A DNA stretch of 64,000 nucleotides from the NCBI RefSeq assembly GCF_002113885.1, contig NW_018404481.1, forward strand, positions 795,322 to 859,321, in the 5' to 3' direction. The notes below the pieces were generated by a model that saw nothing but the letters and a program-made list of their open reading frames with translations, searched no databases and was not told the origin of the DNA. A program made the translations under genes and the position numbers. This DNA is from Mizuhopecten yessoensis (Eukaryota). Positions 1 through 47,000 of this stretch are shown piece by piece. Each line of letters begins with the position of its first letter. Within the stretch, counting starts at the first letter, position 1.

Positions 1-350
1 GTGGTCGGTCACCAGATGTGTGGTGTCGGCAACGAGAGGGTGGTCGGTCACCAGATGTGTGGTGTCGGCAACGAGAGGGTAGTCGGTCACCAGATGTGTG
101 GTGTCGGCAACGAGAGTGTGATCAGTCACCAGATGTGTGGTGTCGGCAACGAGAGTGTGATCGGTCGCAATATGTGTGGTGTCGGCAACGAGAGTGTGGT
201 CGGTCACCAGATGTGTGGTGTCGGCAACGAGAGTGTGGTCAGTCACCAGATGTGTGGTGTCGGCAACGAGAGTGTGGTCAGTCACCAGATGTGTGGTGTC
301 GGCCGCAAGATGATGGTCGGTCAGAAGATACGTCGGTGTCGGCCACGAGA
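1..350. repeat. 39-bp minisatellite (GTGGTCGGTCACCAGATGTGTGGTGTCGGCAACGAGAGT), about 8-9 copies, cut by the window edge
   Basis: Direct tandem periodicity of 39 bp that degenerates after about 300. It explains ORFs 1..375 and 18..359. Confidence 0.95.
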
Positions 351-2469
351 GTTTGGTAGGTCACAAGAAGGGTAGGTCACAAAAGAGTATCTGTTGCAAA
401 TCGTGAGAAGTGTCGGTCGCAAACTCAAGTCAATCCATCATGCACCTGATATAAATTATTCAAATCCCTACGAATAACTTGCTTGAAATGTATTCATAAA
501 TAGGAGCATTACAAAAATTGAATAATTTGCAGTAAGTTAAGTAATCTACAGAATAAATTCGTTTAGATATTAATTTCGTAATTTTGTTCGACCTATTCAA
601 ATTTTGTATCTCACGGTTTCTATATCAGCTTTTAAGTGTATGTGTGACCGTACAAAATCAATTTTGTACTCGTTACATATTTTGTGAATATTTTTCAATA
701 ATTGTTTTTTATCTCTTAGATTCATTTCTATCACAGGCTGTGCATGTAATAGTGTCGACATTCCAGTCAGGATTATTCTACCAATGTTACAGAGTTATCA
801 ATTAATTTCCTGAATAATTCGACTGTTTCATGTTAATCATTTGAAATATTTATTTTGTTAACTTAACCGGCCTGTGGGTTCCCCTGAAATGACAGGACAA
901 CTTTTGTCTAATCCGTGATAATATGTCTGTTCAAAACGTTCTAAGATGTAGAGATCACGTGATACGGAAATCGCATAATATTCAAGTCATTTTGACGACC
1001 GTGTGTATATATTGAGGAGCTTATAATCTTACCCGTAGGAAACTTTGTCTATGTGATTTATTAAACACGACTAATCTATCAAGAAAGTGCTGTCACTTAG
1101 TTCGAATGTATTTAGTTGAATACTGAATCAACCAGGATTTGATATGATGGAGAGATTTGCATGTTCGCACTAACGGAAATCCCTTGACAACTGCAAAAAT
1201 ATAGTCAGGACGTATATAATATTATAATAGAGTATGCTTAGGGAGTGTTACACAATGTGTGGTTTCACACAAAGTAATAATACCTTTAGTTCAGACATAT
1301 TTCCATCAAGTGATTACCATCGGCGATGCTGCATAGTGCGTAATTAAGAATATATTTAATTATGACCTGTAACGAGAACGCGACTGTGGTGTCGTGTTCG
1401 ATAATTATATGAGACTCAACTAGTGCTAAACAATCGCGTTGCTGAATTAAAAAGACAAAGTATAATCAAAATTTGCGACAGTGAAATTATCTCTTTTCCT
1501 AAGTAACTCTTGGTATAAATGTTAACCTTATAAAAACATAAATCATATTCGAACCATTTAAATTCAAATTGAATTATTTGGTAATTTAGTCTACTTTTTC
1601 CAAAGTAATCCAAATTTAATTCCACAAACTTTACTTTCTGAATATATTTGATTATTTCAGAATATAGAAGTTAGCTAATGTGCGACAAAAAACGATTTGA
1701 TGATAACCTATTCAACCGCCTAAGATATTCTAGTTTAGTGGCAGACCTAAGTGCAAATTGTTTGCCGGCCCGGTGGTAGAGCCAGTTGACCTTGTGGTTA
1801 CCCCAATAACAAACCTGCGTTCTGTATTAAATGAACCTTTAGGTATTAAGGACATATTCGTATATAGTGTTGACAAGTACGGCTCATCTATTTCACCCCC
1901 ACACTGTCCTATTTTTATTAGACATATCTTGACAGAAATGTAGCTTTATTGCATAAAATGTATATATTTTTTTCCTACGCAAAAATATATAACGCGTAGT
2001 AGCAAGGACAGTTGCTCCCGAGAAACCTGTGTGTTTATTATGTCCATGTAAGTGAAATGTTAGTAATGTATTAAGTATAAGAGGTGATGTTGAGGAAAAT
2101 GACAGGAGATTGGTGATGAGCCGACAGGTATCGTTCACAAACCTGTCACACACTGTCACAGAAACGTTAATGATAGCCTCGCTAACCTTCACGTGTGATC
2201 CTATACACTCCGCACAAACAAAACATTGTTTTGGTTAACACGGAATCATGTGTTAACCTCATATCGGTTGAATGTATTTACGTACAGAAGGGTTTTAAAG
2301 CAAACTCGATGCTTGCCATTATTCATTCGGAACACCTCGCCCCGATTCCAGTTCCTTCCAACGTAGCACTCGGAACTTCTCGACCGATACGGTCATCTAC
2401 GATGAACATCTTGAAGACGAGGTGTTCCGAATGCATACGTAGATGACCGAATCGGCCGAGAAGTTCCGA

Positions 2470-4711: not shown

Positions 4712-6390
4712 AATACAACACTACCTTACCAGTCAGTATGTTACAATGCTGGGGCACATACAACACTACCTTACCAGTCAGTATGTTACAATGTTAGGAC
4801 ACATACAACAATACCTTACCAGTCAGTATGTTACAATGTTAGGACTCATACAACACTACCTTACCAGTCAGTATTTTACAATTTTAGGACACATACAACC
4901 CTACCTTACCAGTCAGTATGTTACAATGTTATGACACATACAACACTACGTATGTTACAATGTTAGGGCACATAAAACAATACCTTACCAGTAAGTATGT
5001 TACAATGTTAGTACACATACAACACTACCATACCAGTCAGTATGTTACAACGTTAGGACACATACAACTCTACCTTACCAGTCAGTCAGTTGCAATGTTA
5101 GGACACATAAAACACTGCCTTACCAGTCAGTATGCTACAATGTTAGAGCACATCCACCACTTCCTTACCAGTCAGTATGCTACAATGTTAGAGCACACAC
5201 AACACTACCTTACCAATCAGTATGTAACAGTGTTAAAGCAAATACAACACTACCTTACGAGTCAGGATGTTGCAATGTTAGGGCACATAAAACAATACCT
5301 TACCAGTCAATATGGTGCAATGTTAGGACACATAAAACACTGCCTTACCAGTCAGTATGTGACAATGTTAGGACACATGCAACAATACCTTACCAGTAAG
5401 TATGTTGCAATGTTAGGAAACATACAACCCTACCTTACCAGTCAGTACGTTACAATGTTAGGACACAAACAACACTACCTTACCATCCAGTATGTTACAA
5501 TGTTGGAGCACATACAACACTACCTTAACAGTCAGTATGTTGCAATCTTAGGACACATACAACACGACCTTACCAGTCAATATGTTACAATGTTAGAGCA
5601 CACACAACACTACCTTACCATCCAGTATGTTACAATGTTTGGACACATACAACACTACGTATGTTACAATGTTAGGTCACATACAACACTACCTTGCCAG
5701 TCAGTATTTTACAATGTTAGGACACATACAAAAATACCTTACCAGTCAGGATTTTACAATTTTAGGACTCATACAACCCTACCTTACCAGTCAGTCTGTT
5801 ACAATGTTAGAGCACACACAACACTACCTTACCATCCAGTATGTTACAATGTTTGGACACATACAACACTAACTTACCAGTCAGAATGTTACAATGTTCG
5901 AGCACATACAACACTACATTACCAGTCAATATGTTACAATGTTAGGGCACATACAACACTACTCATACAACACTACCTTAACAGTCAGTATGTTGCAACG
6001 TTAGGACACATACAACACGACCTTACCAGTCAATATGGTGCAATGTTAGGACACATGCAACAATACCTTACCAGCCAGTATGTTACAATGTTTGGACACA
6101 TACAACACTAACTTACCAGTCAGAATGTTACAATGTTAGAGCACACACAACACTACCTTACCATCCAGTATGTTACAATGTTTGGACACATACAACACTA
6201 GCTTACCAGTCAGTATGTAACAGTGTTAAAGCAAATACAACACTACCTTACCAGTCAGCATGTTACAATGTTAGGACTATACAACAATACCTTACCAGTC
6301 AGTATGTTGCAATGTTAGGACACATACAACACTACCTTACCAGTCAGTATGTTGTAATGTTAGAGCACATACAACACTACCTTACGAGTT
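4712..6390. repeat. 45-bp minisatellite (CATACAACACTACCTTACCAGTCAGTATGTTACAATGTTAGGACA), about 37 copies
   Basis: Tandem periodicity. The 15-aa translated unit in the ORF track confirms 45 bp. Confidence 0.95.
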
Positions 6391-7276: not shown

Positions 7277-10200
7277 TAACCTCTAAACCGTTTGATTGGC
7301 TGTGTTACCCTAACTCATGGTAACCTTTTAACCGTTTGATTGGCTGTGTTACCCTAGCTCATGGTAACCTCTAAACGGTTTGATTGGTTGTGTTACCCTA
7401 ACTCATGTAACCTCTAAACCGTTTGTTTGGCTGTGTTACCTTAACTCATGTAACCTCTAAACCGTTTTAGTGACTGTGTTACCCTTACTCATGGTAACCT
7501 CTAAACCGTTTGATTGGCTGTGTCACCCTAACTCATGGGAACCTTTAAACCGTTTGATTGGGTGTGTTACCCTAACTCATGGTAACCTCTAAACCGCTTG
7601 ATTGGCTGTGTTACCCTAACTCATGGTAACCTCGTAACCGTTTGATTGGCTGTGTTACCCTAACTCACGGTAACCTTTTAACCGTTTGATTGGCTGTGTT
7701 ACCCTAGCTCATGGTAACCTCTAAACGGTTTGATTGGTTGTGTTACCCTAACTCATGTAACCTCTAAACCGTTTTAGTGACTGTGTTACCCTAAATCATG
7801 TAACCTCTAAACCGTTTGATTGGCTGTGTTTCCCTAACTCATGGTAACCTCTAAACCGTTTGATTGGCTGTGTCACCCTAACTCATGGTAACCTTTCAAC
7901 CGTTTGATTGGCTGTGTTTCCCTAACTCATGGTAACCTCTAAACCGTTTGATTGGCTGTTAGACCGCTTTTTTGGCTGTGTTACCCTAACTCATGGTAAC
8001 CTCTAAACCGTTTGATTGGCTGTTAGACCGCTTTTTTGGCTGTGTTACCCTAACTCATGGTAACCTCTAGACCGCTTTTTTGGCTGTGTTACCCTAACTC
8101 ATGGTAACCTCTAAACCGTTTGATTGGCTGTTAGACCGCTTTTTTGGCTGTGTTACCCTAACTCATGGTAACCTCTAGACCGCTTTTTTGGCTGTGTTAC
8201 CCTAACTCATGGTAACCTCTAAACCGCTTGATTGGCTGTGTTACCCTAACTCATGGTAACCTTTCAACCGTTTGATTGGGTGTGTTACCCTAACTCATGT
8301 AACCTCTAAACCGTTTTAGTGACTGTGTTACCCTTACTCATGGTAACCTCTAAACCGTTTGATTGGCTGTGTTACCCTAACGCATGGTAACCTCTAAACC
8401 GTTTGATTGGCTGTGTCACCCTAACTCATGGTAACATTTAAACCGTTTGATTGGGTGTGTTACCCTAACTCATGTAACCTCTAAACCGTTTGTTTGGCTG
8501 TGTTACCCTAACTCATGTAACCTCTAAACCGTTTTAGTGACTGTGTTACCCTTACTCATGGTAACCTCTAAACCGTTTGATTGGCTGTGTCACCCTAACT
8601 CATCGTAACCTTTCAACCGTTTGATTGGGTGTGTTACCCTAACTCATGTAACCTCTAAACCGTTTGATTGGCTGTGTTTCCCTAACTCATGTAACCTCTA
8701 AACCGTTTTAGTGACTGTGTTACCCTTACTCATGGTAACCTCTAAACCGTTTGATTGGCTGTGTCACCCTAACTCATGGTAACCTTTAAACCGTTTGATT
8801 GGGTGTGTTACCCTAACTCATGTAACCTCTAAACCGTTTGATTGGGTGTGTTACCCTAACTCATGTAACCTCTAAACCGTTTTAGTGACTGTGTTACCCT
8901 AAATCATGTAACCTCTAAACCGTTTGATTGGCTGTGTTACCCTAACTCATGTAACCTCTAAACCGTTTGATTGGGTGTGTTACCCTAACTCATGTAACCT
9001 CTAAACCGTTTGTTTGGCTGTGTTACCTTAACTCATGTAACCTCTAAACCGTTTTAGTGACTGTGTTACCCTAACTCATGGTAACCTTTCAACCGTTTGA
9101 TTGGTTGTGTTACCCTAACTCATAGTAACCTCTTAACCGTTTGTTTGGCTGTGTTACCCTAACTCATGGTAACCTCTAAACCGTTTGATTGGCTGTGTTA
9201 CCCTAACTCATGGTAACCTCTAAACCGTTTGTTTGGCTGTGTTACCCTAAATCATGGTAACCCCTAAACCGGTTGATATGCTGTGTTACCCTAACTCATG
9301 GTAACTTTTAAACCGTTTGAGTGGCTGTGTTACCCTAACTCATGGTAACTTTTAAACCGTTCGAGTGGCTGTGTTACCCTAACTCATGGTAACTTCTTAA
9401 CCGTTTGAGTACCTGTGTTACCCTAACTCATGGTAACCTCTAAACCGTTTGTTTGGCTGTGTTACCATAACTCATGGTAACCTCTAAACCGTTTGATTGG
9501 CTGTGTCACCCTAACTCATGGTAACCTTTAAACCGTTTGATTGGGTGTGTTACCCTAACTCATGGTAACCTCTAAACCGTTTGATTGGCTGTGTCACCCT
9601 AACTCATGGTAACCTTTAAACCGTTTGATTGGGTGTGTTACCCTAACTCATGTAACCTCTAAACCGTTTGTTTGGCTGTGTTACCTTATCTCATGGTAAC
9701 CTCTAAACCGTTTGTTTGGCTGTGTTACCATAACTCATGGTAACCTCTAAACCGTTTGATTGGCTGTGTCACCCTAACTCATGGTAACCTTTAAACCGTT
9801 TGATTGGGTGTGTTACCCTAACTCATGTAACCTCTAAACCGTTTGTTTGGCTGTGTTACCCTAACTCATGGTAACCTCTAAACCGATTGTTTGGCTGTGT
9901 TACCCTAAATCATGGTAACCTCTAAACCGTTTGTTTGGCTGTGTTACCTTAACTCATGTAACCTCTAAACCGTTTTAGTGACTGTGTTACCCTAACTCAT
10001 GTAACCTCTAAACCGTTTTAGTGACTGTGTTACCCTAACTCATGTAACCTCTAAACCGTTTGTTTGGCTGTGTTACCATAACTCATGGTAACCTCTAAAC
10101 CGTTTGATTGGCTGTGTCACCCTAACTCATGGTAACCTTTAAACCGTTTGATTGGGTGTGTTACCCTAACTCATGGTAACCTCTAAACAGTTTGATTGGC

Positions 10201-10573
10201 TGTGTTACCCTAACTCATGGTAACCTTTCAACCGTTTGATTGGCTGTGTTACCCTAACTCATGGTAACCTTTTAACCGTTTGATTGGCTGTGTTACCCTA
10301 ACTCATGGTAACCTTTTAACCGTTTGATTGACTGTGTTACCCTAACTCATGGTAACCTTTTAACCGTTTGATTGACTGTGTTACCCTAACTCATGGTAAC
10401 CTCTTAACCGTTTGATTGACTGTGTTACCCTAACTCATGGTAACCTTTTAACCGTTTGATTGGCTGTGTTACCTTAACTCATGGTAACCTCTTAACCGTT
10501 TGATTGGCTGTGTTTCCCTAGCTCATGGTAACCTCTAAACCGTTTGATTGGCTGTGTTACCTTAACTCATGGT
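7277..10573. repeat. 43/44-bp minisatellite (TAACCTCTAAACCGTTTGATTGGCTGTGTTACCCTAACTCATGG), about 75 copies
   Basis: Clear tandem periodicity over 3.3 kb with recurring sequence variants. Confidence 0.97.
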
Positions 10574-11639
10574 ATGTCATTAGAAAGCTAAAAATACTGA
10601 CTTAAGTATATATTGATGTTGCTTATCATAATTCCGAATATTTTCATTAATAAAAATATTGCTATGTTTTTATTCACGAATCGGCTTATTTATATTTATT
10701 TTTTATGTTTCCGGTTTGTTTACATTGTTGTTCAAAACACCTTTGTCTCAGTTTTTATATTATCTGGCTTTCATTAGCAAATGCGGTTTTTATGTAGGTG
10801 GTTAATTCAAGAAAGGGCTATGAAAACTTGAGATAACGTTTTTTTTACTATAAATTGTCCAACAAATTTGCCAAATATGAACATCTCTGGGCAAAATATC
10901 TATGAAATGAAGCATTTCGGTTTTTAAAAGTTTTAAAAGGGAATTAATTTTATATGAAATGACCGACAGACAAGCAATGAATCCTTTAAAGAAATCTGAT
11001 TATTTAAATATTTAACACACACGCACATAGAGCTAATGGGTTAACCTTCTTCACCACTATTCCACAATAGACTTCAACTTTCTCCTTCTAACCTTTCCTG
11101 TGGAGTGAAGTTGGATAGTATATGTTATATTTAAGCCAGTGCAGAGAGTATTGTTGTTAACTGCTATTGCGCTACTACATATTTTTGATAGAAAATAAAA
11201 TAATTATTTCGTTTATTTACACAACTTTTTATATATATTTTTTTTTTGATTTTTTGTTTTGTTTTGTAATTCTTATATTCTACAACTTATGTAGGAAGGA
11301 TATATCTTTGATATAACCTAGAAAAAAAATGTCGGATTTTTCAAATATTTAAAGCCCAATACCAATTTTAGCATTGTTAATGTTTCACCCATTGGCCTTA
11401 CCCGATTTTACTACCTTAGGGTTGTGGTATACCTTTCAAAAGAATATCACCTGGTCAAAATAGTGCATCTCACTGACACTTATTGAACTGGAGAAGAAGA
11501 TTGTTAAGTTCCTATAATAATCTACGCTTAGCCTGTTGTTTTTTTTGGAAGTCCATTTATAATCACTTAAACCGGATATGAGCTAATTTAACAAATGAGT
11601 AATCCAGGCTTAAGTTTCTGTCACTTGCAGGATAAACGT

Positions 11640-11843: not shown

Positions 11844-11962
11844 TTGGTTTAGTTTGTTTGTGTTTTACATCCTATTAACAGCTATGGTCATTAAAGGACG
11901 TGCAAAGTTTTGGTGGTGGAAGAAAGCCGGAGTACCAGGGGAAAACCCACCGACCTACGGCC
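11844..11962 (-). mobile_element. 5'-truncated SINE, family 1
   Basis: Reverse-complement similarity to 13254..13465 and direct similarity to 59683..59860, with a (CAAA)-type tail. Confidence 0.8.
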
Positions 11963-12769: not shown

Positions 12770-12827
12770 ATGAAGGATTTATTTTTTATCATTCTCGTGG
12801 TTTTTTCATCATGGACATTTATCTCAG
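12770..12827 (+). CDS. Cys-rich secreted protein exon 1 (signal peptide)
   Basis: ATG, basic residue, hydrophobic core, small residues at the predicted cleavage site, GT donor at 12828. Confidence 0.8.
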
Positions 12828-14670
12828 GTATGTTAAATTAATTACCTTTTTTTATGTATTTTTTATTGTATCTGTGACAATTGTTTTTATATTTCTGAAT
12901 ATTATCCTATCTCTATAAGGTCATTTCTAGCAATCTTATGACTTTACAGAAAAAATGCTTGACACCAAGATAAACTTATTGATTGACTGATTTTTAATGC
13001 ACTAATAGCAAAGGTCGTTAAACTCTTTTAAATTTTCACGAAATGAAATTCTTGTAATTCATTTATTCATATCTAGCATAACAAGTAGTGAATAACCTAA
13101 CCATTTTGATTTCGACTGGTACAGTTATAACTATAGACAGGCATAGCAATGTTTGTTATTTCTTTATTAGGTAAATGGTATATAATGGTTACTGTGTAAA
13201 ACACATACTATAGAATGTGTACGCATATCAAATTGTATTTAATTACTACATGTCTGGGCCGAGTGGTTAAGACATCTGATCGTCTAAAAACACTAGCCCT
13301 ACACCACTTGGTCGATGGATCGAGGCCTACGTGGGGCAATCACCAGTGACTCGATGTAGGTCGGTGGTTTTTCTCCGGGTACTCCGGTTTTCCTCCTCCA
13401 CTAAAACCTGACTCGTCCCCTTATGACAAGAGCTGTTAATAGTGTGTAAAACACGATCACACCACCCAAAAATAAATGTCTATACAATTAACATGTATCG
13501 AGTTATTCCAATTAACGCATATACATTTGTATTTACTAAGAACATATCCCAAGTGTTTAATAACTTCAACTTAAATACTAGCATCTGCTTAATTTAGTCG
13601 GGACATATGTTATATGTTGGTGTATTTCTTTTCCAAAAAGAGACTGCTCGACTGTTTAATTAGTACGTATGTTATGTTTTGCCGTATTTCGTTCCCGTAA
13701 AAATAATAGTATCTGTTTGTATATTTTGTCAGTACATATGTTAGGTGTTGGCGTGTTTCTTTCCCTTAATAATAGTAGTGTCTGCTTGTCTATTTAGTCA
13801 GTATATATGTTATGTGTTGGCGTATTTTGTTTTACATAATGTTAACTTGTACATGTAGTATGTAAAAATCTTATGTGTAAGCGCATTACACTTTAACAAA
13901 ATGGTATTTGCATCTACGTGTCGGCTTATTACACTTTATATCGTATTCCCTGTTTGTGTTATTTGGTGCACAACAGAGGGTAATCTCTAAACTTTACGAA
14001 AAATGTGTGTCCATAAAAGTTCGCAACAATTGTTTTGTTCATAGGCGCAATGGTAACACAGTCGGGGAGGAGGAATTTCCAGACGAGTACTCGGAAGAAT
14101 GATTCCAAGGTTCGAAGTGCACGACTACCAGCGGTGTCGTTTTCAGCTGGACCAGCAAAGAGCAAGTGTGAGTCACAGAAATGTAATCCTGGCTACAAGA
14201 AGAAGGTAACAGCTAATCCGACGGGAGGTTGTCCTATCGTCAATTGTATAAGAAAGCAACAAGCTTACTGTCCTCCTGTAAATTGTCAAAGCAATCAAAA
14301 GAAAAGCTACAGTGGTAAAAAACTGCCAAATGGCTGCCAGGAGATAAAATGTGTAAACAACCGCCAACCTCAGCGAGCACAGAGGCGGAGGAAAGGGGGT
14401 TGTCCATCGGTGCGTATGTGCACGCCTCGAGAGGAAGGTTACTGCGAGATACCGCGCATCATTTACGTCAACCGCCAGAAGTGTTACCTCTGTCCCGATG
14501 TTGTGAAATGCAACAAACGCAAATGTCCGGATATAAGTCTTTGTCCTTCAGCGAATTTCCAGCTGGACGAATGTCTCATTCCTAGAAAGGATAAAGGAGG
14601 ATGCAAGCAATGCCCTGAGATAACTAAAAATTGTGATCAAATTGGTGGAGTAAGGAAACAACTCGTCTAA
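12770..14670 (+). CDS. Secreted cationic cysteine-rich protein, 227 aa, join(12770..12827,14045..14670), family not recognised
   Basis: Exon 1 encodes a signal-peptide-like MKDLFFIILVVFSSWTFISG ending in a phase-1 donor CAG|GTATGT. Acceptor TTTTGTTCATAG| at 14044 restores the frame of the 211-aa ORF. Total 684 nt = 228 codons. 20 Cys in two repeated patterns. AATAAA at 14873 and 15520. Confidence 0.88.
13254..13465 (+). mobile_element. tRNA-derived SINE, family 1 (V-domain-like core), near full length, intronic
   Basis: Pol III A-box-like GGGCCGAGTGGTTAA, degenerate B box, core GGTTTTTCTCCGGGTACTCCGGTTTTCCTCC. Two more copies occur in the window. Confidence 0.8.
13575..13835. repeat. Degenerate about 62-68-bp tandem repeat, about 4 copies, intronic
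   Basis: Recurring TCTGCTT...AGTACATATGTTATGTGTTGGCGTATTTC. Confidence 0.7.
14045..14670 (+). CDS. Cys-rich secreted protein exon 2 (mature region, stop TAA)
   Basis: Long non-repetitive ORF with higher GC than its flanks and patterned cysteines. Confidence 0.9.
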
Positions 14671-15129
14671 ATCACGAAACGTTCAACACTTTTAATGATG
14701 AGATGATAAGCATCGACATTATACAAGCAGAAATAACACAACGACGAACCTAATAGTCACATACAAAAATATAAGGCTTTAATCCGAACCGATAACAGTG
14801 TATCTCTTAGTGAATGAGATTTGCGTACTGGAACACCAAATAGGGCATTGCAAAGTCTAGAGGGATTACGACAATAAATTGACTATGGTTGTCACCATCA
14901 AGAATGAAAATAACAGGAAAGATTTTGTGTTCACGACGTGATGTGATTTTTTTTTTTCTCTTTTTAGTTATTTCAGGAGTTGACCTTCCATCAATTGATA
15001 GGTGAAAAGGTTTGAGAGGCTAAAATGAACGAAGACTTGAGTAATATGTACGTTTTCAAGGCGACGAAATCACCACAGCATAGCGTACGAAATCTCAGGA
15101 ATATGCACATTTTCTAATGAAGGAACACT

Positions 15130-21412: not shown

Positions 21413-24400
21413 CTGAAATTAGAACAAGTAATATTTAGTCGATTTAATGGTTTAAAGCGATAATAAGTATTAAATCCAAATAGGTATAAACTGTCACATG
21501 ACTGAATCACAAGATTAGTCTGAAGCCCCCTACTGATCTCAATAAGGGCTGAAGAAAGCAACCAGGAGGGCGCCGAAAGTTGCTCATGAGTATTCAGTTG
21601 AAAGATTCTGTTAAACGTTGGTTTAATAAAGGTGTTAACTGCTGTTGAAACAGAAGGGGAGGAGCATGAAAACCTTTAATAAAATAATTTTAAAATTTCA
21701 GAAGACTGATATTTATACTGTTAAAACATTTAAACTAAAACGTAACAATCACCATATTGTTTACTACTTAAAGTTGAAATGAAATGAAATTCAAACTGTT
21801 GGCAATCAAAATTAAAAACTGAACCTCAATAATCAGCCTACTATTAACCATCAAAAAATAAAGCAGCATTTATATAAATCAATAGATGAATCTCCATATT
21901 CATCATGCATTTAACTATTTTTAGTTGAAATACAGCAATATGTTAACGGTAGTAGGTAATCATTCCTTACTAAGCTGACATATCCAATTAAGCTCCACAA
22001 TAAGAAACATCTACATCTTTTTATAGATGATACTTTTAATTTGTTTGATTTATTACTGACACAAAGGTGCAAATGGTTGAAAAGCGATCACAAGTATTCA
22101 ATAATTAGATTATGCAAATTTCACAACAAATATATGATGTGTAAGTTAGTTGATAACCTTTATATCGACACAATCCAATTATCAAACGATAAACTAATAA
22201 AAAGGACTGTTAAGGTTGTATTTGAATTTTTAATATTATTGTATTCCCCCGAGCCAAAACTTATATATAATATACTTATAAGTATATACATATACATATA
22301 TAAATAACTGTGAACCTTGAACTGTCAGGGTTAAATATTTATTGATCGTGTATCATTGTAACGGTATACAAACAAGGGTCCAAGTGTAATATTTTGCATG
22401 ACTCAATGCAATCATTTTTCTGTTAAGATTATAGACAAAAAATGAAAAGGTCTTTTGTTCAATTTATAACGATAGTGTCCATTGAAAACGTTTTGAAAAT
22501 TACCTGAAATGAGGAAAATACGAACGCACCCCATCCAAATATCAACAGCTTACTTTTGAGCCAATCTTTTAACACAACATTGCATCCCTAGAAACAAAAC
22601 AAAAACGGTAATATATATCATTGCCATCATTACAAAACATTATGCATATTCGAAAAGACCTATGATATTGAATCAGTTCAATAAATGGTCGAGCATATAT
22701 ATGCATCAACTCTTTGAATGAACTATGCATGCTTTTGTAAGTTGTCGTTTCTCGGATGCTTAACAAAACAAATTAACCTCTTTGAACAACATTGCTTATA
22801 GCTTATCTATGATATCTCCTTGAGTGTGTCAATTCGAGGACTTACTTTAGTATATACCCTGCTTAGATCTGGTGGTATGCCCTTTGGTACGTTACATGAC
22901 ACGTCCGCTGGATCATGGCAACATGAAGTCGGCAGCACTTCACGCCCTCTACCGTCCGATAAGGTGACATCGCGGTAATACAGAGTTGACCGCCAGTCCA
23001 TATAATCACGATACCCACAGCAATACAACTACAACCGACAAATTTAAACCAGCAGTGACATCCACAGCAAAACGATAAAAAGCACAACCTTAAACGTTTG
23101 AAAGCGTTTAAGTTAAGTTTATATACAGAATAAATCATTTAAAGTAGTCTGAAACAATATCTTACACTGAATCACATTTTTGGGGTTAATACTGCAATCG
23201 AGGGATATGATACGAAACATAACTGCTCGAAGCTTGATCAATATTTGAAGACCACTCAAAAAGTTTACAACTTCGGAAAACTGCAAACACCAAACAAAAT
23301 GTTGAAATACTTAAACTAAACAGAAAGGCATTGAAAATTACCAAAATATGCACTCTGATAAGAAACGAATACAGGATTCTCGGATGTCTTATTTTTATGC
23401 AAATTAGCTTTGTTAGGGTGTTTTATTTCAGGTGTAATACTTGAAATAGTATAGTTAAACAGAGGGATTATGCATATACTATTATGTTTGTGTATTAAGT
23501 AAAACTTTGATACAAATATAATACTTCTTATCCAAAACAGAAATTTGGTTAGAAGATCGTAAGGTTTTTTTGTCATAAAATAAAGTATAAATGTATTTCC
23601 CTTTTATTTTCCATATTAAGAACAACAAGACGAACCTGGATAAAACCTCCACTTAGTATTAACTCATTAAGTATTTTTTGTTTAATTTCAAGTATTTGTG
23701 ACTTAATTAATGCATTCATGTATTTATATATGCAAATGCATTTATTCCAAGACATTTCTATATATCAATAGATTCATTATTCTATTGTTCATTCATTTCA
23801 CGGATAAGTCATTCATTCAACTTTTTGCTAATTCATGATTTCCACATCCTCCCAATTGATTGATCTTACATGTTATAGATAATGGTTATATGGGCGTTAT
23901 AAGCTTAGTCAAGTGTTACACTGTCAAACATTATATATAACATCACAAATAAGATACTCTTACTCAGTATGAATACATGTATGTATCATGTCGTTCCATT
24001 AGGTGAAGTTAGTTTTTAGAATGACTATCCTTGACATGTAAATAGATAATGTACGTTTTTTTTGAAACAGTGCAAATACAGAAATAATCAGGATATGTCC
24101 CTTTCAATACGATTTGCCAGTATACATAACAGTATACATAACAGTATACATAACAGTATACATAACAGTATACATAACAGTATACATAACAGTATACATA
24201 ACAGTATACATAACAGTATACATAACAGTATACATAACAGTATACATAACAGTATACATAACAGTATACATAACAGTATACATAACAGTATACATAACAG
24301 TATACATAACAGTATACATAACAGTATACATAACAGTATACATAACAGGAAATGTTTTGAATAACCTACACCAACTCACATTTACCCCAAATAGATAGTC

Positions 24401-27400: not shown

Positions 27401-30400
27401 TATAATTACAACTGCCTGTTTCAGGTGTAGGAATATGTAAACAAACAAAATGGCCGCCTGAAATGTATTTTGAGGCAGGGCAAATGGTTTTTGTAGGAAT
27501 ATGTCTTAAAAAAGAAAAANNNNNNNNNNNNNNNNNNNNNNNNNNNNNNNNNNNNNNNNNNNNNNNNNNNNNNNNNNNNNNNNNNNNNNNNNNNNNNNNN
27601 NNNNNNNNNNNNNNNNNNNNNNNNNNNNNNNNNNNNNNNNNNNNNNNNNNNNNNNNNNNNNNNNNNNNNNNNNNNNNNNNNNNNNNNNNNNNNNNNNNNN
27701 NNNNNNNNNNNNNNNNTATTGTTGACATACTTACAAGTGGCCTCTGGCAAATCTACCATAAAATCCTAGCGGGTTTTATGGAATTTGCCAGAGGCCACTT
27801 GTAATTATATCAACAATAATTACATCCAGACAACCAGTTATTGTTTAAATAAAGTTAAAAACGTCCTGATTTTTCTATATAGAATAAGCTTCATCATATT
27901 TAGTTATATCCACTCAACAAGATACTAACTGTATTTGTAATTATCTTAATTCAATAATAATGTTTCAAAAAGCTGGATATATTTAATGACTCAGTATCCA
28001 AATTAGTCGTTTAATCCAGTCTTTTTCCCAATATATGGCCTTAAATGTACAGTAAAAATGTAACTTGGTTTAGCTTTATGCATCAACTTACTCAAATTTT
28101 AAATAAGCGTTTCCTTGCTTTATATTTCTTGAGACTATAATATGGACCATGTATTAATTGTTTAAATTTGCATACCTGAGGAGTTATTAAGACGCTAAAG
28201 CGCTATCGTTTAACGACACGGCACCATTGTAAACCACTGAACAAGTAAGACTTAAGAGCAAAAGCAGTACACGGTAATTTTGTGGTTAAATTAAAAATAC
28301 ATATGACAGTTATTTGAAAAATGACACATGATTGTGGTTTGAGAAATTTATTATCTATAACAAACCACATCCAGAGCTTAACAATAATTTATCAGCTGAG
28401 TGTGCCATTTCAATGAAAAATTAACATAATGACGCTAATTATAGCTGTTGTTAGTAGATAATAATAGCCCACAACTGTGATTTGTCTCTTAGATTATATG
28501 CAAATAAGGCTAATACACGAACACAATATAAGCACGAACAAAGTAACACACAGCTAAGTCCCCCAAACACAGTTGGGGACCTTTTTCTTTGGCTGCCTTT
28601 TATAATATTACTTTTCTTACAATGATTTCGCCAAATAGTTCCCGAGGGTTTTCTTAGAGACTACCTTCCGGATACTTTTGACACTTCACATCAGCCTTGA
28701 TAGGCATATGTAGATGTGCATAATGCGCTTCATGATCTGATTGGTTAACAAACACGGGTTCCGTGGCCGCTGATTGGTTGGCGCGTTTATTGGTGTACGC
28801 CAAGGTGATACCAACGGTCAATCCATATATTTTTATTTGATAGTATAACTTCAATATAATGCTCCTCGTTTCATTTGCTCCTTCACTCACTTCACACATT
28901 TCAATATCCCCTTTTCTACTTTTCTTTAAAAAAAAAGGTGTTATATGTTACCTCGTATTACCGCCAACCCCTTTATAACGCCAAAATAGTGACAGTATAA
29001 CGAGGTTTAACTTTATGGATCATTACATTGAAAGCTCTTTCTGATGCATCGTTTGTAACTATCGGGACAGTTTGGGGACTTGAGTAACAATGAAAGCGTC
29101 TTTATCTCACAATGAATAAAATTACATGAAGAATGTAATATAATGCTTGAAAAAGAAAAAATTATAAAAAGAAAAAAATACATGAAGTAGAACAAAAGAA
29201 CACATGATTTATCATAAAGTGAATAATATCATAGAAAGCCTTTTAGAGGAACTAGTCAACCAAAATATCGTACACAATAGAAGGAATAAACTGTTACCTT
29301 TAGAGTGTGCATTAAGGTATACAGGTCTGAGTGCAATTATATGGCCTCATTAATCACCACTTGACTTATGCGTGGCTGGCACTCGCGAACTGACATAAGA
29401 TATATTAATGACGTCGGTGACTCACCTTGTCATAAATATAGAAGGAAGCGACGCACGTGTATAGCTGACATCCAAATATCACAACAAGGGAAAAGCTGAA
29501 CTAGAACACAGAATTGTACAATACGTTTACGTGAGTCTTCATGATTACATGTGTCAATGTTAGACTTGTCAATGTCTCTTATTACATTAGCGTATGGACT
29601 TTATGTAGAAGGTATGGGGGTCACTGTGACAATTTTGTATTCATAACATGTTCCATTGAATGTGTTTTTGAAAATGTGTTATGTAGACCTCAAATGAATA
29701 ATATACAGGTATGTATAATTATTTCCTAATACAGCGAAGTTTAACATATAACTTAATGCGGAACGAATATGCGCCTTCAAAATCAAACAGTTAGCTTTTT
29801 TCGCCTAGATTTTAAGTAATCTTTTCGATATAATTCGTAAAATGGTAATATTGATATATTTTGAATCCATATTAACTTTTCAGGTGCTATGAAGAAATAT
29901 CTTAATTGAATCCGTTATTGAATTACAAACGTGTTACAACCTGACAGCTTCAACACTTCAACATTGTTTTCTGAATAAACGTCATTATTTCATGAAAATA
30001 AAACCTTGATATGCCTACAATTGCCTTATTGCCTAATGCTTAAATTGCAAATGCCTAACTTATGGTGGTTAAAACAACTTGCAAATATTTTTACATGAAT
30101 GGTATTATAAATGTTAACACTATTGTCAGTGAGTATTTAAGAACAGGTATAAAGTGTATAATATATGTCTCTATTCTACCATCAGACATTTATATCCTGA
30201 TTTATCCATAAGTGATTTATCTTCCAACCCTTAGATTATGAGAACCGGCACGTGCTGAACCGGAAGCGTTATTTTTTTTTTATAATACACACATTTAAGG
30301 AATTAATTGAATTCAAATCTATTTCATATGAAGACAAAATTGTCACGATTGTTTTGAAAAACAAAAAATCTCCGTTTAATTAAACACACTGACAGAAGCT

Positions 30401-30479: not shown

Positions 30480-31312
30480 TGGTGAACAAATGGCATTGTT
30501 TAAGGGACAAGTGATTTAAAACTGTTGACATCATGTTTAATATATACTGGAATTTTCCAAAATGATTTCACAACTATGGTGCTTGAATAAATCGCTTGAG
30601 TCGTTGCTTTTAAATTTATTCATGTGGGTCAAATGTAATATACCAAATATACATTACACATCGTTTAAAGTAAAGTGACACTGATCTTAAAAGTGTCTTA
30701 ACTGATGAAATATTAGGTCAAGTTACTAATTTGGGAAATATTAAGAAGTTACAACTATACATTATTTACAACATGACTCATTCCATTCGATAACGAAATG
30801 TTAAGATTAACAAATCTGAATAATTGAAGGTAAAGATTTATAAATATTGTGGAATATATTCTCAAATTATTGATGCTGTGCACGAATGTATTTATCCAAA
30901 CACAACATATTTTGTGTATACACGTACTTTCTAACATACTACTGACTGAATGAAATACATACTTACAAAGCAGACAAGCAATTTATTTTCGTTGACACCA
31001 CCTAAGCAGCCACATATACCACAAACGATACAGGCGCCTCCAGCAGCAATCATGACGTAGGACTGGGTATTGTATGACGTCATATCAAGGACAGGACTGT
31101 ACATATTTACCGTGAGATAAAACCAAATAGACAGTCCAAGTACAGCTGGTCCAGAAAACTGCACGACAGAATAAATACATAAATGAAAATATGATACTGT
31201 GACAAGAAATAAACAACAGTTAAATGTGGACAATAAAGCATACACAAACCAAAATACAAGGATTTAACATATGCATAAAGCTAAAGTCAACAAGCAAACA
31301 GACAGTGTGTGT

Positions 31313-31355
<43 letters not shown>

Positions 31356-34300
31356 TGGTATGTGTGTGTGTGTGGGGGGGGTATAGTTGTTATAAAAAGA
31401 CATCAGATATGTTATATTCACTCATTATATTGCTTTTAAATCACCTTTATTAATTTCTGGCACACCAAAAAAAGACACAGTAATACTGAATAATTTCAAG
31501 TTGAAATTTATCAAAATGCAAATAGATAATTCATATACAATGACCCAGAAGGGATGGTAATTTTTAACAACCAAAGTTAAAAATAAAATAATCAAATGCA
31601 GGTATAAGATAAACAATTAAGTTGATATAAATATAAATCAAGGAACGTTATCCCTGGACAGTTTTTACAACAAAAACGTCATATAAGCCCTTAAAGTCGT
31701 TATTAAAAAAATTCGGTCAAGATATAAACACTTGTAACCAACTACATCACAGAGGTCATGTACATGGCAGAGTTACAACCAAAGTATGACAAAAAAAAAT
31801 CTCAATTATTTGAAAGGTTACACATATTATTCCATTTACGTGATACATTATTCACATTAAATATTTTAGTATTCCAACTCTGGTTAACCAAGTCATTACT
31901 TTATAAGCAAGTAGCTACAAGGTCCATGGGCAGAATACCACCTTCTTGCTGGGATTTAAACCCTTACCACCAAGATACCCAGTGGTTACGGAAACCCTAC
32001 CTACTAAACAGTTGGTCCTAACATCCCCACTTTCAGGATGTCTTTGCCTACGCCAAACCTACAAGGCTCCTAGACATAAAACATAAAGCTTACTGAGCCT
32101 AACACCCCATCTACAATTTTAAAGTTACTGACCATTTACCCCACATACAATGTTAAATGACTTAAATGACACCCCATCTACATTTTAAGGTTACTGACGC
32201 TAACACCCCATCTACAATTTTAAGGTTACTGACGCTAACACCCCACCTACAATTTTCAGGTTACTGACGCTAACACCCCATCTATAATTTTAAGGTTACT
32301 GACGCAAACACCCCATCTACAATTTAAGGCTACTGACGCTAACCCAACATCTACAATTTAAGGTTACTGACGCAAACACCCCATCTACAATTTAAGGCTA
32401 CTGACGCTAACACAACATCTACAATTTAAGGTTACTGACGCTAACACCCCACCTACAATTCAAGGATACTGACGCTAACACCCCATCTACAATTTAAGGT
32501 TACTAACGCTAACACCCCACCTACAATTTAAGGTTACTGAAGCTAACACCCCATCTACAATTTTAAGGTTACTGACGCTAACCCCCCACCTACAAATTTA
32601 AGGTTACTGACGCTACTGAGGCTAACACCCCATCTACAATTTAACGTTACTGACACTTACACCCCACCTACAATTTAAGGTTACTGACGCTAACGCCCCA
32701 TCTACAATTAAAGGTTACTGACGCTAACACTCCATCTACAATTTAAGGTTACTAACGCTAACACCCCACCTACAATTTAAGGTTACTGACGCTAAAATCC
32801 CATCTACAATTTTAAGGTTACTGACGCTAACACCCCACCTACAAATTTAAGTTTACTGACGCTACTGACGCTAACACCCCATCTATAATTTAAGATTACT
32901 GACGCTAACACCCCATCTACAATTAAAGGTTACTGACGCTAACACTCCATCTACAATTTAAGTTTACTGACGCTAACACCCCATCTACAATTTAAGGTTA
33001 CTGACGCTCACACCCCACCTACAAATTTAAGGTTACTGACGCTACTGACGCTAACACCCCATCTATAATTTAAGATTACTGACGCTAACACCCCATCTAC
33101 AATTAAAGGTTACTGACGCTAACACTCCATCTACAATTTATGGTTACTGACGCTAACACCCCACCTACAATTTAAGGGTACTGACGCTAAAACCCCATCT
33201 ACAATTTTAAGGTTACTGACGCTAACACCCCCCCTACAATTTAAGGTTACTGACGCTAACACCCCGCCTACAATTTAAGGTTACTGACGCTAACACCCCA
33301 GCTACAATTTAAGGCTACTGACGCTACCACCCCATCTACAATTTAAGGTTACTGACGCTAACTCCCCATCTACAATTTAAGGTTACTGACGCTAACCCCC
33401 CATCTGCAATTTAAGGTTACTGACGCTAACACCCCATCTGCAATTTAAGGTTACTGACGCTAACGCCCCATCTACAATTAAAGGTTACTGACGCTAACAC
33501 TCCATCTACAATTTATGGTTACTGACGCTAACACCCCACCTACAATTTAAGGTTACTGACGCTAACGCCCCATCTACAATTAAAGGTTACTGACGCTAAC
33601 ACTCCATCTACAATTTATGGTTACTGACGCTAACACCCCACCTACAATTTAAGGTTACTGACGCTAAAACCCCATCTACAATTTTAAGGTTACTGACGCT
33701 AACCCCCCACCTACAATTTAAGGTTACTGACGCTAACACTCCATCTACAATTTAAGTTTACTGACGCTAACACCCCATCTACAATTTAAGGCTACTGACG
33801 CTAATACCCCATCTACAATTTAAGGCTACTGACGCTAATACCCCATCTACAATTTAAGGCTACTGACGCTAATACCCCATCTACAATTTAAGGCTACTGA
33901 CGCTAATACCCCATCTACAATTTAAGGCTACTGACGCTAAGACCCCATCTACAATTTAAGGTTACTGACGCTAACACCCCACCTACAATTTAAGGTTACT
34001 GACGCTAACACCCACCTACACATTTAAAGTTACTGACGCTACTGACGCTAACACCCCATCTACAATTTAAGGTTACTAACGCTAACACCCGATCTACAAT
34101 TTAAGGTTACTGACGCTACTGACGCTAACACCCCATCTCTAATTTAAGATTACTGACGCTAACACCCCATCCACAATTTAACGTTACTGACGCTAACACC
34201 CCCCCTACAATTTAAGGTTACTGACGCTAACACCCACGTACACATTTAAAGTTACTGACGCTACTGACGCTAACACCCCATCTATAATTTAAGATTACTG

Positions 34301-37300
34301 ACGCTTACACCCCATCTACAATTAAAGGTTACTGACGCTAACACTCCATCTACAATTTAAGGTTACTAACGCTAACACCCGATCTACAATTTAAGGTTAC
34401 TGACGCTACTGACGCTAACACCCCATCTATAATTTAAGATTACTGACGCTAACACCCCATCTACAATTAAAGGTTACTGACGCTAACACTCCATCTACAA
34501 TTTAAGGTTACTGACGCTAACACCCACCTACACATTTAAGGTTACTGACGCTATTGACGCTAACACCCCATCTACAATTTAAGGCTACTGACGCTAACAC
34601 CCCATCTACAATTTTAAGGTTACTGACGCTAACACCCCACCTACAATTTAAGGTTACTGAAGCTAACACCCCATCTATAATTTTAAGGTTACTGGCGCAA
34701 ACACCCCATCTACAATTTAAGGCTACTGACGCTAACACCCCATCTACAATTTAAGGTTACTGACGCTAACACCCCATCCACAATTTAACGTTACTGACGC
34801 TTACACCCCACCTACAATTTAAGGTTACTGACGCTAACACCCACCTACACATTTAAGGTTACTGACGCTACTGACGCTAACACCCCATCTACAATTTAAC
34901 GTTACTGACGCTTACACCCCACCTACAATTTAAGGTTACTGACGCTAACACCCACCTACACATTTAAGGTTACTGAGGCTACTGACGCTAACACCCCATC
35001 TACAATTTAACGTTACTGACGCTTACACCCCACCTACAATTTAAGGTTACTGACTCTAACACCCACCTACACATTTAAGGTTACTGACGCTATTGACGCT
35101 AACACCCCATCTACAATTTAAGGTTACTGACGCAAACACCCCAACTACAAATTTAAGGTTACTGACGCTACTGACGCTAACGCCCCATCTACAATTTAAG
35201 GTTACTGACGCTAACCCCCCACCTCCAAATTTAAGGTTACTGACGCTACTGACGCTAACGCCCCATCTACAATTTAAGGTTACTGACGCTAACACCCCAC
35301 CTACAATTTAAGGTTACTGAAGCTAACACCCCATCTATAATTTTAAGGTTACTGACGCTTACACCCCACCTACAATTTAAGGTTACTGACTCTAACACCC
35401 ACCTACACATTTAAGGTTACTGACGCTATTGACGCTAACACCCCATCTACAATTTAAGGTTACTAACGCTAACACCCCATCTACAATTAAAGGTTACTGA
35501 CGCTAACACCCCATCTACAATTAAAGGTTACTGACGCTAACACCCCATCTACAATTAAAGGTTACTGACGCTAACACCCCATCTACAATTTTAAGGTTAC
35601 TGACGCTAACACCCCACCTACAATTCAAGGTTACTGACGCTAACACCCCATCTACAATTTTAAGGTTACTGACGCTAACACCCCACCTACAAATTTAAGG
35701 TTACTGACGCTACTGACGCTAACGCCCCATCTACAATTTAAGGTTACTGACGCTAACACCCCACCTACACATTTAAGGTTACTGACGCTACTGACGCTAA
35801 CACCCCATCTACAATTTAAGGCTACTGACGCTAACACCCCATCTACAATTTAACGTTACTGACACTTACACCCCACCTACAATTTAAGGTTACTGACGCT
35901 AACACCCACCTACACATTTAAGGTTACTGACGCTATTGACGCTAACACCCCATCTACAATTTAAGGTTACTGACGCAAACACCCCACCTACAAATTTAAG
36001 GTTACTGACGCTACTGACGCTAACACCCCATCTACAATTTAAGGCTACTGACGCTAACACCCCATCTACAATTTAACGTTACTGACGCTTACACCCCACC
36101 TACAATTTAAGGTTACTGACGCTAAAACCCCATCTACAATTTAAGGTTACTGACGCTAACACCCCATCTACAATTTAAGGTTACTGACGCAAACACCCCA
36201 CCTACAATTTTAAGTGAATGACGCTAACATCCCACCTACAATTTAAGGTTACTGCCCCATCAACAAGATTACTGGACATAGCACCCCACCTGCGTAATCC
36301 AACCTCCATCCATCGCTATCGTAACGTTATGTATACGACAACTTTAAATGACCTTGCGCGGTTCTCGCGATATTTAGATTCTTAAAAGCACAGGTAAGGT
36401 AGAAATTATATTGATTTAGACCTTTGTATCAGTATCGAAAAACATTGAGCCTGTGTGTTTAAAACATTGCAAGAACATGAGGTAAAGTAGTTACAGTACC
36501 TCCTATTCATAGATGTATCGTAATGCATGCAGGAAACATTTCTGTATATAAATCTGTCTCGGCAACAATTCGTTAATATGCTGAATTCATGAACAAACTT
36601 ACATCACTACCAATTACACTTTAAATAAACTTCATACACTACTTTAAAACGACACACAGAGCCAAACCCCCGCCCCGTATAACACCTTACGCTGTACGTC
36701 ACATAATTATATACAAAGTAATTGACAAAAATAGCATCAACAAGAAAATGTAAAACAAGGTTGACCTTTGACCGAGGTCAACCTGTGCTCTATATTACAC
36801 ACACCTACAGGTGTAAGGTGAAACATCAACCCAACAGGGTTCTGAAAACATTACCTGGGACCATTGTGTTATGCTTACATATAACCTCAACATATTGATG
36901 GCGAGACCAGCGTTATCTGGGATGAATTTTATTACGTTAATCTTCGCCCCGAAATCTGATGTAAGATACATTACTATAAATATGCACGCGCCCAAGTAGG
37001 TGCCTAAGATTCAGTGAATGAGGTATCTTTGAACAGGTGGTCTCAGAGTATAGCACTATGTTTACACAACTAAGCTATCTAGAATGATAGTACTTGATTT
37101 CTCTGACGTTAAGGCACAAGACCTACTGCAATGACAAGTCAGCTTTAAAAAACATATTTAGATATATATATATAAGACAGAATACTCAATGGTATCAATT
37201 AAAGTTATTTTATCCGTCAATAGCTGTATTTGTTGTGAATATTCATGCGTAAAACAGAACGGAATATAATTTATAACTTTTAAATGCATATAAATATACG

Positions 37301-44086: not shown

Positions 44087-47000
44087 CTGAAAAGATATGA
44101 CAATACAAATGAAAATAGGTTTTATTTTTAATCAAAGGACAATTGGGCATGTAAAAAGCTAACCAAGTCAAACAGCATTAACAGTAAGACAATTACAATT
44201 CTTCAGAATTAGAATGAATGTGTACCCTTGATGTGGTTCTCATGAATTGAAACCCTTTTTCTGTCAGGAAAGATATTCAGTTTTTAAAGTATTTTTGAGT
44301 GCTTTGCAGTCAAGATTAATCTAAATGTTATTTTCATTACAGTATTTTTTTCTCCAAACATAGGGACGATTTGAATAGTTTTTATATGACCCTTGTCAAA
44401 TTGAATGTATGTTGCATTGATATCAAATTAAGGTGTATTTGTTAGTATACACATAATTCGCCATGATTGAAAGGTAAAATATAACGTATAAAGGTATATT
44501 TGCACCATGTAATTTTACACTATACAACGAACCTTAACAATTTACTCCATACAATGTATCCCCCAATGTTACAATGTATCAAGCAATAGTGCATTATACA
44601 AAGTACCATATTCCGACTTTTCGTATTGCAGAGTTATCTGCTCTTGTGAGCAGGTATTGATTGTTATGTCATTTGTTTGTGAGAGTAACGTCATCCATTT
44701 TTGAGGACACGACGTAATTTTCTCACACAAACCAATAACGTAACAATCAATACCTGCTCACAAGAGAAGATAATTCTGCAATACGCAAAGACGGAATACT
44801 GTTTACACTGTAGGTTTATCATTTTTTTCTTCGTTAATGATTTATTTATTAAAATGTTCATCTTGTTATCAAAAAAGATTCCGATTGGTAGTTACAGTTT
44901 TTTGGCATTGGTATGCTTTTCAACAAAATCTAATATTTTTCTCTCCTTCAAATAGATCGAGACATTGTATGAATACAAAATAAGTATACGTGTACCATCC
45001 AATTAAACACATGTGAATAAACACACATAGGATTATAGATATAACCGTGTAATTTATGCTATCAATATATATGATAGGTTTATCTGATAAGCAACAGTTA
45101 TATGATATCAATATATATGATAGGTTTATCTGATAAGCAACAGTTATATAATCTATCAATATATATGATAGGTTTATCTGATAAGCAACAGTTATTTGCT
45201 ATCAATATATATGATAGGTTTATCTGACAAGCAACAGTTATATGCTATCAAGATATATGAAAGGATTATGTCAAGCAACAGTTATTTGCTATCAATATAT
45301 ATAATATGTTTATATGATAAGAATCAGTTATATGCTGTCACGATATATGATAGGTTTATCTATGCTATCAAGATATATGATAGGTTTATCTGATAAGCAA
45401 CATTTATATGCTATCAAGATATATGATAGGTTTATGTCAAGCAACAGCTATATGCTATCAAGATATATGATAGGTTTATGTCAAGCAACAGCTATATGCT
45501 ATCAAGATATATGATAGGTTTATGTCAAGCAACAGCTATATGCTATCAAGATATATGATAGGTTTATATGATAAGCAACAGTAATATGCTATCAAGATAT
45601 ATAATATGTTTATATGATAAGCAACAGTTATTTGCTATCAAGATATATGATAGGTTTATATGATAAGCAACAGTAATATGCTATCAAGATATATAATATG
45701 TTTATATGATAAGCAACAGTTATTTGCTATCAAGATATATAATATGTTTATATGATAAGCAACAGTTATTTGCTATCAAGATATATAATAGGTTTATATG
45801 ATAAGAAACAGGTATGTGCTATCAAGATATATGATAGGTTTATCTGATAAGCAACAGGTATATGCTATCAATATACATGATAGGTTTATCTGATAAGCAA
45901 CAGTTGTATGCTATCAATATATATGATAGGTTTATCTGACAAGCAACAGTTATATGCTATCAAGATATATGAGAGGTTTATATGATAAGCAACATTTATA
46001 TGCTATCAAGATATATGATAGGTTTATCTGATAAGCAACATTTATATGCTATCAAGATATATGATAGGTTTATCTGATAAGCAACAGTTATATAATCTAT
46101 CAATATATATGATAGGTTTATCTGATAAGCAACAACTATATGCTATCAAGCTATATGAAAGGTTTGTCAAGCAACAGTTATTTGCTATCAAGATATATGA
46201 TAGGTTTATATGATAAGCAACAGTTATATGCTATCAAGATGTATGATAGGTTTATCTGATAAGCAACAGTTATATTCTATCAAGTTATATGATAGGTTTA
46301 TCTGATAAGCAACAGTTATATAATCTATCAATATATATGATAGGTGTATCTGATAAGCAACAGTTATATGCTATCAATATATTTGATAGGTTTATCTGAT
46401 AAGCAACAGTTATTTGCTATCAATATATATGATAGGTTTATCTGACAAGCAACAGTTATATGCTATCAAGATATATGAGAGGTTTATATGATAAGCAACA
46501 TTTATATGCTATCAAGATATATGATAGGTTTATATGATAAGCAACAGTAATATGCTATCAAGATATATAATATGTTTATATGATAAGCAACAGTTATTTG
46601 CTATCAAGATATATGATAGGTTTAGACGATAAGCAACACTTATATGCTATCATGATATATGATAGGTTTTTATGATAAGCAACACTTATATGCTATCATG
46701 ATATATGATAGGTTTTTATGATAAGCAACACTTATATGCTATCATGATATATGATAGGTTTTTATGATAAGCAACAGTTATATGATATCAAGATATATGA
46801 TAGGTCTTTATGATAAGCAACAGTTATATGATATCAAGATATATGATAGGTCTTTATGATAAGCAACAGTTATATGATATCAAGATATATGATAGGTTTA
46901 TCTGATAAGCAACAGTTATTTGCTATCAATATATATGATAGGTTTATCTGACAAGCAACAGTTATATGCTATCAAGATATATGATAGGTTTATGTCAAGC

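Follow-up and report, generated by a model that had tools for sequence, protein, structure and literature searches.

A pectinid family of secreted, cysteine-rich basic proteins with a link to the scallop shell

Lineage-restricted shell matrix proteins are common and form a well-known kind of protein (PMC4897951). Songin, KRMP, N25, PNU9, PfN23, perlwapin and perlinhibin come closest to the scallop protein described here, the product of LOC110445471 (P0001), as they too are secreted, basic, often rich in Cys and in Arg or Lys, lineage-restricted and associated with mantle or shell. No sequence relationship to P0001 was found for Songin, KRMP, N25, perlinhibin or perlwapin, which makes this a comparison of how the proteins may work; perlwapin is made of WAP domains and KRMP proteins carry Gly/Tyr-rich tails. 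Songin is also far shorter, with a 76-aa precursor compared with the 227 aa of P0001, and the basic matrix proteins KRMPs, N25 and PNU9 inhibit crystal growth (PMC13756312). The same source considers that basic proteins may act via carbonate, mineral surfaces or other matrix components, which it states as not demonstrated; among the hyperacidic proteins it names are MSP-1 and MSP-2 of Mizuhopecten yessoensis (PMC13756312).

The shell proteome of Pecten maximus was obtained from shells that had been bleached with hypochlorite, freed of the periostracum and decalcified, with the spectra being searched against mantle transcriptomes. Its protein list comprises 46 entries, 24 of which have a BLAST match, and actin, tubulin and myosin, which are common cell contaminants, are absent from it as reported (PMC5854119). 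Immune-related domains account for 21 of 47 shell domains (PMC5854119), so location in the shell does not imply a mineral role. In the byssus of Chlamys farreri, the main components are 4C-repeat proteins, for which five genes with 8-18 exons, ORFs of 1035-2532 nt and 6-13 repeats have been described (PMC9168380). Sbp5-2 and its kin are similar to P0001 in being secreted scallop proteins with about 8-9% Cys and 4-Cys units, but Sbp5-2 is acidic (12.4% D+E) and Ca-binding, whereas P0001 is basic and has all four of its modules, arranged as A-A-B-B, in one exon.

LOC110445471 lies in a 64-kb stretch of M. yessoensis DNA, referred to here as the window, the features of which are collected in Table 1. 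The initial annotation of this stretch had proposed that a signal-peptide exon splices in phase 1 onto a single 626-nt exon, and this is borne out, as a GT donor directly follows exon 1 and the spliced translation of 227 aa, with one stop, is letter for letter the uncharacterised LOC110445471 protein of M. yessoensis at NCBI. A profile made from four homologues alone, with P0001 left out, recovers exon 2 (E 3.6e-57) and the exon 1 frame (E 3e-06) as the top two of the 2899 six-frame segments of the window, which means that the gene model is not due to chance. An artefact or a repeat-derived ORF is ruled out by an exon 2 that is free of tandem repeats and whose best match to itself at the DNA level has an E of no less than 0.57, and by the conservation of the homologues. 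The GC content is 0.465 in exon 2 compared with 0.33 in the intron. No TATA box was found in the 370 nt upstream of the gene; downstream, the putative poly(A) signal is followed by three more up to 15525.

The neighbours of LOC110445471 are two tandem tetraspanin genes on the opposite strand, convergent with it and without an evident link to it. Nesting of LOC110445471 in the neighbouring tetraspanin gene was rejected, as the recognisable coding exons of the latter stop near 22.5 kb, about 8 kb away. The region of the second tetraspanin gene contains an assembly gap. A profile search of the six-frame segments found no paralogue of LOC110445471 in the 64-kb window, and weak profile matches near its start were in fact a 39-bp tandem repeat. 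The interspersed repeat in the intron has two inverted copies elsewhere in the window and is, by its sequence, possibly a SINE. Large minisatellite arrays create long spurious ORFs, and an open frame of 89 aa resembles the end of a reverse transcriptase from a non-LTR retrotransposon.

Table 1. Positions of LOC110445471, its protein regions and other features in the window
Feature	Position	Strand	Details
Coding exon 1	12770..12827	+	58 nt; ATG at 12770; signal peptide (predicted) residues 1-19 and first base of codon 20
Intron, phase-1 GT-AG	12828..14044	+	1217 nt; AG at 14043-14044 after T-rich tract
Interspersed repeat inside intron	13285-13464		~180 bp
Inverted copies of interspersed repeat	59690-59872, 11852-11958		78-80% identity
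Tandem repeat inside intron	13655-13831		69-bp
Coding exon 2	14045..14670	+	626 nt; entire mature chain; stop codon 14668-14670
Cys-free basic leader, residues 21-60	14047..14166	+	9 K+R, 1 D+E; predicted disordered
Ser-Phe-Ser, residues 51-53	14137-14145	+	
Module A1, residues 61-87	14167..14247	+	C-x4/5-C-x12/15-C-x4-C; predicted beta-hairpin 70-75/84-89
Module A2, residues 95-122	14269..14352	+	C-x4/5-C-x16-C-x4-C; predicted beta-hairpin 104-112/118-124
Basic linker, residues 123-138	14353..14400	+	15-16 aa, 4-8 K+R
Module B1, residues 139-175	14401..14511	+	C-x5/7-C-x7/10-C-x12-C-x2-C-x5-C; long predicted beta-hairpin 152-161/164-174
Module B2, residues 180-216	14524..14634	+	C-x4/5-C-x7/9-C-x9/11-C-x2-C-x6/7-C; predicted beta-hairpin 196-198/211-213; most antistasin-like stretch
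AATAAA, putative poly(A) signal	14873..14878	+	first after stop
Two tandem tetraspanin genes	21.4-31.3 kb, 48.4-53.8 kb	-	
Tetraspanin Pfam PF00335 matches	51937-52332, 48376-48741, 30934-31263	-	
Tetraspanin CCG/PxSCC exon	22807-23028	-	
Assembly gap	27520-27716		197 N
Weak profile matches (39-bp tandem repeat)	1-413		rejected as paralogue
Open frame, 89 aa	2443-2712	+	no match in Pfam (E up to 0.01)
Minisatellite arrays	4713-6389, 7277-10574, 32086-36254, 45361-48190		units 45-, 44-, 34-, 46-bp

P0001 contains 20 Cys, and its residues 21-227 hold 42 K+R against 13 D+E (43 against 14 in the whole chain), with a pI of 9.76 and a computed charge of about +28. Hydropathy peaks at 3.71 over residues 4-12, a single N-terminal hydrophobic stretch and none further along is present in four of the five proteins of the family, and AlphaFold2 predicts a helix at residues 2-22; together these support the presence of a signal peptide and the lack of a membrane anchor, with cleavage inferred near residue 20. 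The Cys spacings are 4,15,4 in A1, 4,16,4 in A2, 5,7,12,2,5 in B1 and 5,9,9,2,6 in B2, with 7, 16 and 4 residues between successive modules, and the chain ends in a short tail after B2. The leader measures 40 aa in P0001 and 36-40 aa across the five proteins. The Cys and charge counts, the module spacings, the basic leader of about 40 aa and the GC at the third Cys of each A module had all been claimed in the initial annotation and agree with our recount, the GC being invariant in all five proteins. Of the motifs said to be shared by the B modules, the spacings stood, but CxIPR in B1 holds for P0001, while the homologues read C-x-V-P/S-R/K.

The A-A-B-B arrangement was assessed by fixing the Cys columns and shuffling the remaining columns 500 times, as a per-sequence shuffle overstated the significance for all six module pairs. 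The real score was reached in 3/500 shuffles for A1-A2 and in 0/500 for B1-B2 (hhalign E 0.016 and 1.2e-4, respectively), and as both pairs survive this column shuffle, the modular architecture read from the single sequence is real. A2-B2, one of six comparisons, was reached in 2/500 (hhalign E 0.026), making a common origin of the A and B modules possible, as far as sequence similarity goes; by the same shuffle, A1-B1, A1-B2 and A2-B1 are not significantly similar. The most conserved module is A2, with eight invariant non-Cys residues and a mean non-Cys identity of 56%. In an AlphaFold2 model from the five-sequence alignment, each module contains one two-stranded beta-hairpin and the leader is disordered, at a low confidence (mean pLDDT 58, pTM 0.22; about 65-80 in the A modules and 48-64 in the B modules), and a single-sequence model backs the A1 hairpin alone. 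The picture that this suggests is one of small disulfide-stapled beta-hairpins on a flexible string. The even number of Cys in each module would allow 10 intramolecular disulfides distributed as 2+2+3+3, a figure that comes from the count and not from the fold model.

An exhaustive search of 1.84 billion cluster representatives with the single sequence gave three matches at E up to 0.001, and a profile search of 1583 candidates retained five with an E of 1 or less. The family consists of P0001, LOC132547038 of Ylistrum balloti, a protein of Argopecten irradians, LOC117336230 of P. maximus (P0005) and one Logan record lacking a signal peptide. All four named source species are Pectinidae, which agrees, for the searches run, with the earlier proposal of a lineage-specific protein. 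The four full-length homologues are 40-50% identical to P0001, and all 20 Cys are kept in the same pattern in 5/5 proteins, the conservation that had been named beforehand as a test of the gene model; pairwise identity across the five is 40-59%. The A. irradians protein, signal peptide included, is also present in Logan contigs, which suggests a spliced transcript. A pI of 9.74-10.08 is found in all five proteins, which places them among basic shell matrix proteins as defined by more basic than acidic residues and a pI above 9. When the mature chain is counted region by region in each protein, 33 of the 35 values show no net negative charge. The heparin-binding consensus matches once across the five proteins. 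One gene was found in each named species by the profile search of proteins of at least 113 aa, and longer multi-repeat forms were absent among 5533 candidates at E up to 10, which is weak evidence. The single copy and the 40-59% identity fit a rapidly evolving, lineage-restricted shell protein (compare PMC4897951).

The initial annotation had recognised no characterised family, and none emerged from the searches. Pfam gave no significant match for exon 2, its two halves, the four modules or the five proteins (searched to E 10, HMMER filters on), and none of the antistasin, VWC, WAP, Kazal, Kunitz, EGF or defensin HMMs matched the proteins or modules; the best row of any kind was CHCH at E 0.0099 in one of the five proteins, below the cut-off. 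Nothing significant was found in NCBIfam, PDB sequences gave no match at E up to 10, the Atlas gave no usable feature match (best TM 0.24 and 0.34), and fold searches returned nothing at E up to 0.001. In a further fold search, a Z of at least 2 was reached by 0 and 14 chains out of 48161, the highest being 2.4; with models this weak, the results point neither to a known nor to a new fold.

Direct evidence for the shell matrix, one of the roles suggested at the outset, comes from the P. maximus homologue. P0005, the sole P. maximus match, is 50% identical to P0001 over the full length, and a search of the PMC5854119 supplement with its motifs led to TR36767c0_g1_i1_fr2, the third entry listed for P. 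maximus shell, with two unique peptides, an identification probability of 1 and Mascot scores of 71.3 and 57.9 (PMC5854119). By in-silico digest, both are tryptic peptides of P0005, residues 38-54 in the leader and 76-85 in A1. The first covers the stretch that matches the Ser-Phe-Ser region, which is invariant in an otherwise variable leader and a possible candidate for a short binding or modification motif. LOC117336230 has the signal peptide and all 20 Cys of P0001 and is, from sequence, likely the orthologue of LOC110445471. The shell list gives the entry as '---NA---', without a BLAST hit and with one predicted TM helix (PMC5854119), which is probably the signal peptide; if so, exon 1 and exon 2 would be read in a single frame of the mantle transcript. 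Mantle transcription of the P. maximus homologue follows from the origin of the entry, a contig of the mantle transcriptome. Unlike P0001 here, it had been listed without a name, architecture or family description, and the main text of PMC5854119, as far as available, does not mention it. Shell presence is documented by one study in another species, with two peptides and 7% coverage of a six-frame translation (PMC5854119), and a polycation could also be trapped passively in the shell.

We regard it as highly probable that the product of LOC110445471 is secreted by the mantle and incorporated into the shell in M. yessoensis too. That matrix or mineral control is the main job of this single-copy, pectinid-restricted gene has, in our estimate, an even chance. 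The protein would be secreted into the extrapallial space as a protease-resistant, disulfide-stiffened polycation. D/E pairs number at most two per protein and His 0-2, and with almost no acidic clusters or His, direct Ca2+ binding is unlikely, so the protein would act without chelating Ca2+. It could bind the very acidic scallop matrix proteins of the MSP-1/MSP-2 type as well as carbonate-terminated crystal faces and, once bound, neutralise or bridge the matrix and slow or shape CaCO3 growth, an effect in line with reports on other basic shell proteins. For specific binding, the conserved face of A2 is the leading candidate site.

A defensive role embedded in the shell is unlikely but fares best among the alternatives. 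The cationic hairpins, either whole or cut in the linker to AA and BB, would act where mantle and shell meet, by harming the membranes of microbes or by keeping borers and foulers away. RxxR and dibasic sites are convertase cleavage motifs, and the linker between A2 and B1 contains both in four of the five proteins, making it a possible convertase site by sequence; basic pairs are, however, expected by chance at about 19% K+R. Similarly, both shell peptides come from the N-terminal half, but this bias has p = 0.13, and the leader beyond the first dibasic site was itself recovered from shell. The charge of about +28, the predicted Arg-rich beta-hairpin of B1 and the frequency of immune proteins in bivalve shell (PMC5854119) speak for a defensive role, whereas the mature chain has a low hydrophobic fraction of 0.22-0.25 and an aromatic fraction of 0.03-0.05. 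The gene was also found just once in each species, with no second copy in the window, in contrast to the variable multigene families of bivalve antimicrobial peptides (PMC10138031). A bolder form of this reading, in which A and B are undescribed disulfide-hairpin modules of common origin and the AA and BB miniproteins cut at the linker are a long-lived polycationic defence of the scallop shell against microbes and borers, is distinctly improbable; if true, it would define a scallop-specific effector family with new scaffolds.

Quite improbable, too, is a divergent antistasin-like serine protease inhibitor guarding the organic matrix, although Kazal, Kunitz and WAP inhibitors do occur in shells (PMC5854119). 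An antistasin repeat contains 2 Gly along with its 5-6 Cys (PMC6719055), and the B modules resemble this repeat (PF02822) in six Cys, a C-x9/12-C-x2-C arrangement near the end, Gly-Cys at the hairpin turn and tandem copies. One invariant Gly lies inside each of B1 and B2, that of B2 before the fourth Cys. The spacing differs from antistasin, however, as the second-to-third and fifth-to-sixth Cys loops are longer and variable. In antistasin, P1 is the residue after the second Cys and the reactive loop is short and fixed at three residues, while the B-module loop after the second Cys varies between 7 and 10 residues. At the would-be P1 position, B1 has T,K,K,K,G, with Lys in three of the five proteins, whereas B2 has P,P,P,P,R. 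These residues, with Pro in 4/5 B2 modules, disfavour antistasin-type inhibition; the initial annotation had itself called two motifs only loosely antistasin-like. None of the proteins or modules matches antistasin, Kazal, Kunitz or WAP in Pfam or a PDB sequence at E up to 10; fold searches barely test the B part at its pLDDT of about 48-64, and a distant descent from antistasin or VWC hairpins is at most a possibility.

A general secreted protein of mantle or haemolymph, involved in the extracellular matrix or growth-factor binding and of remote VWC/mucin ancestry, might have been passively occluded in the shell, which we consider very unlikely. The VWC/mucin repeat hairpin reads Cys-x4-Cys...Cys-Pro-x3-Cys, in a domain with a Cys-Cys doublet and about 10 Cys. 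The C-x4-C start and C-P-x3-C end of A1 and the string of small disulfide-stapled beta-hairpins are reminiscent of VWC and mucin C-terminal repeats, as if the A modules were such hairpins with one disulfide lost, and VWF C4 (rank 9, E 2.6) and VWC/antistasin and VWD proteins (TM 0.21-0.22) were among the weak, non-significant rows. The A modules differ in having only four Cys each, no adjacent Cys-Cys pair occurs in the five proteins (the smallest Cys spacing being 2), and neither a VWC Pfam match nor a significant fold match was found. The family is also scallop-only in the searches run, and the shell list is without the common cellular contaminants (PMC5854119).

The least probable reading is a structural or cross-linking role in the byssus, also raised at the outset, with kinship to the 4C-repeat proteins. 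The secreted, Cys-rich chain and the 4-Cys modules shared with them are set against the difference in gene structure and charge, a Tyr content of just 3-6 per protein and the lack of a fitting entry in the 101 rows covered of the byssal secretome table of C. farreri, which has 186 rows and gives no sequences. The nearest of these entries, row 127, has 2 exons, 729 nt, a Cys/Lys/Arg-rich composition, a Kazal/IGFBP annotation and a GRAVY of -1.05 compared with -0.45 to -0.67 here (PMC9168380). As a separate observation, row 164 of Table S3 of that study (CF44339.34) is the most strongly induced C. farreri byssus-secretion gene, which encodes an unannotated, Cys/Pro-rich secreted protein; with 184 aa and 5 exons, it is unlike LOC110445471 in size and exon count (PMC9168380).

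The gene was already annotated in RefSeq, and its homologue is listed, unnamed, in the P. maximus shell proteome. What is new is the scallop-restricted, undescribed family, its Cys framework and its link to the shell. The locus numbers and two family motifs are not mentioned in the literature searched, which consisted of main texts with subscription papers largely missing, and the family has no match in the six supplementary files of PMC5996578 or the single short one of PMC8382897. The finding is not very surprising, since a BLAST match was reported for no more than 24 of the 46 proteins in P. maximus shell. It does bring together a RefSeq gene and a shell-proteome entry, both anonymous until now, in one defined family of five members. 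Much less is understood about basic shell proteins than about acidic ones. Very acidic proteins are what the scallop shell is mainly known for, which makes a conserved polycation an obvious counterpart to study. With about 27-40 aa, each module is small enough to be produced by itself, so that the mineral, antimicrobial and inhibitor readings could be cheaply separated.
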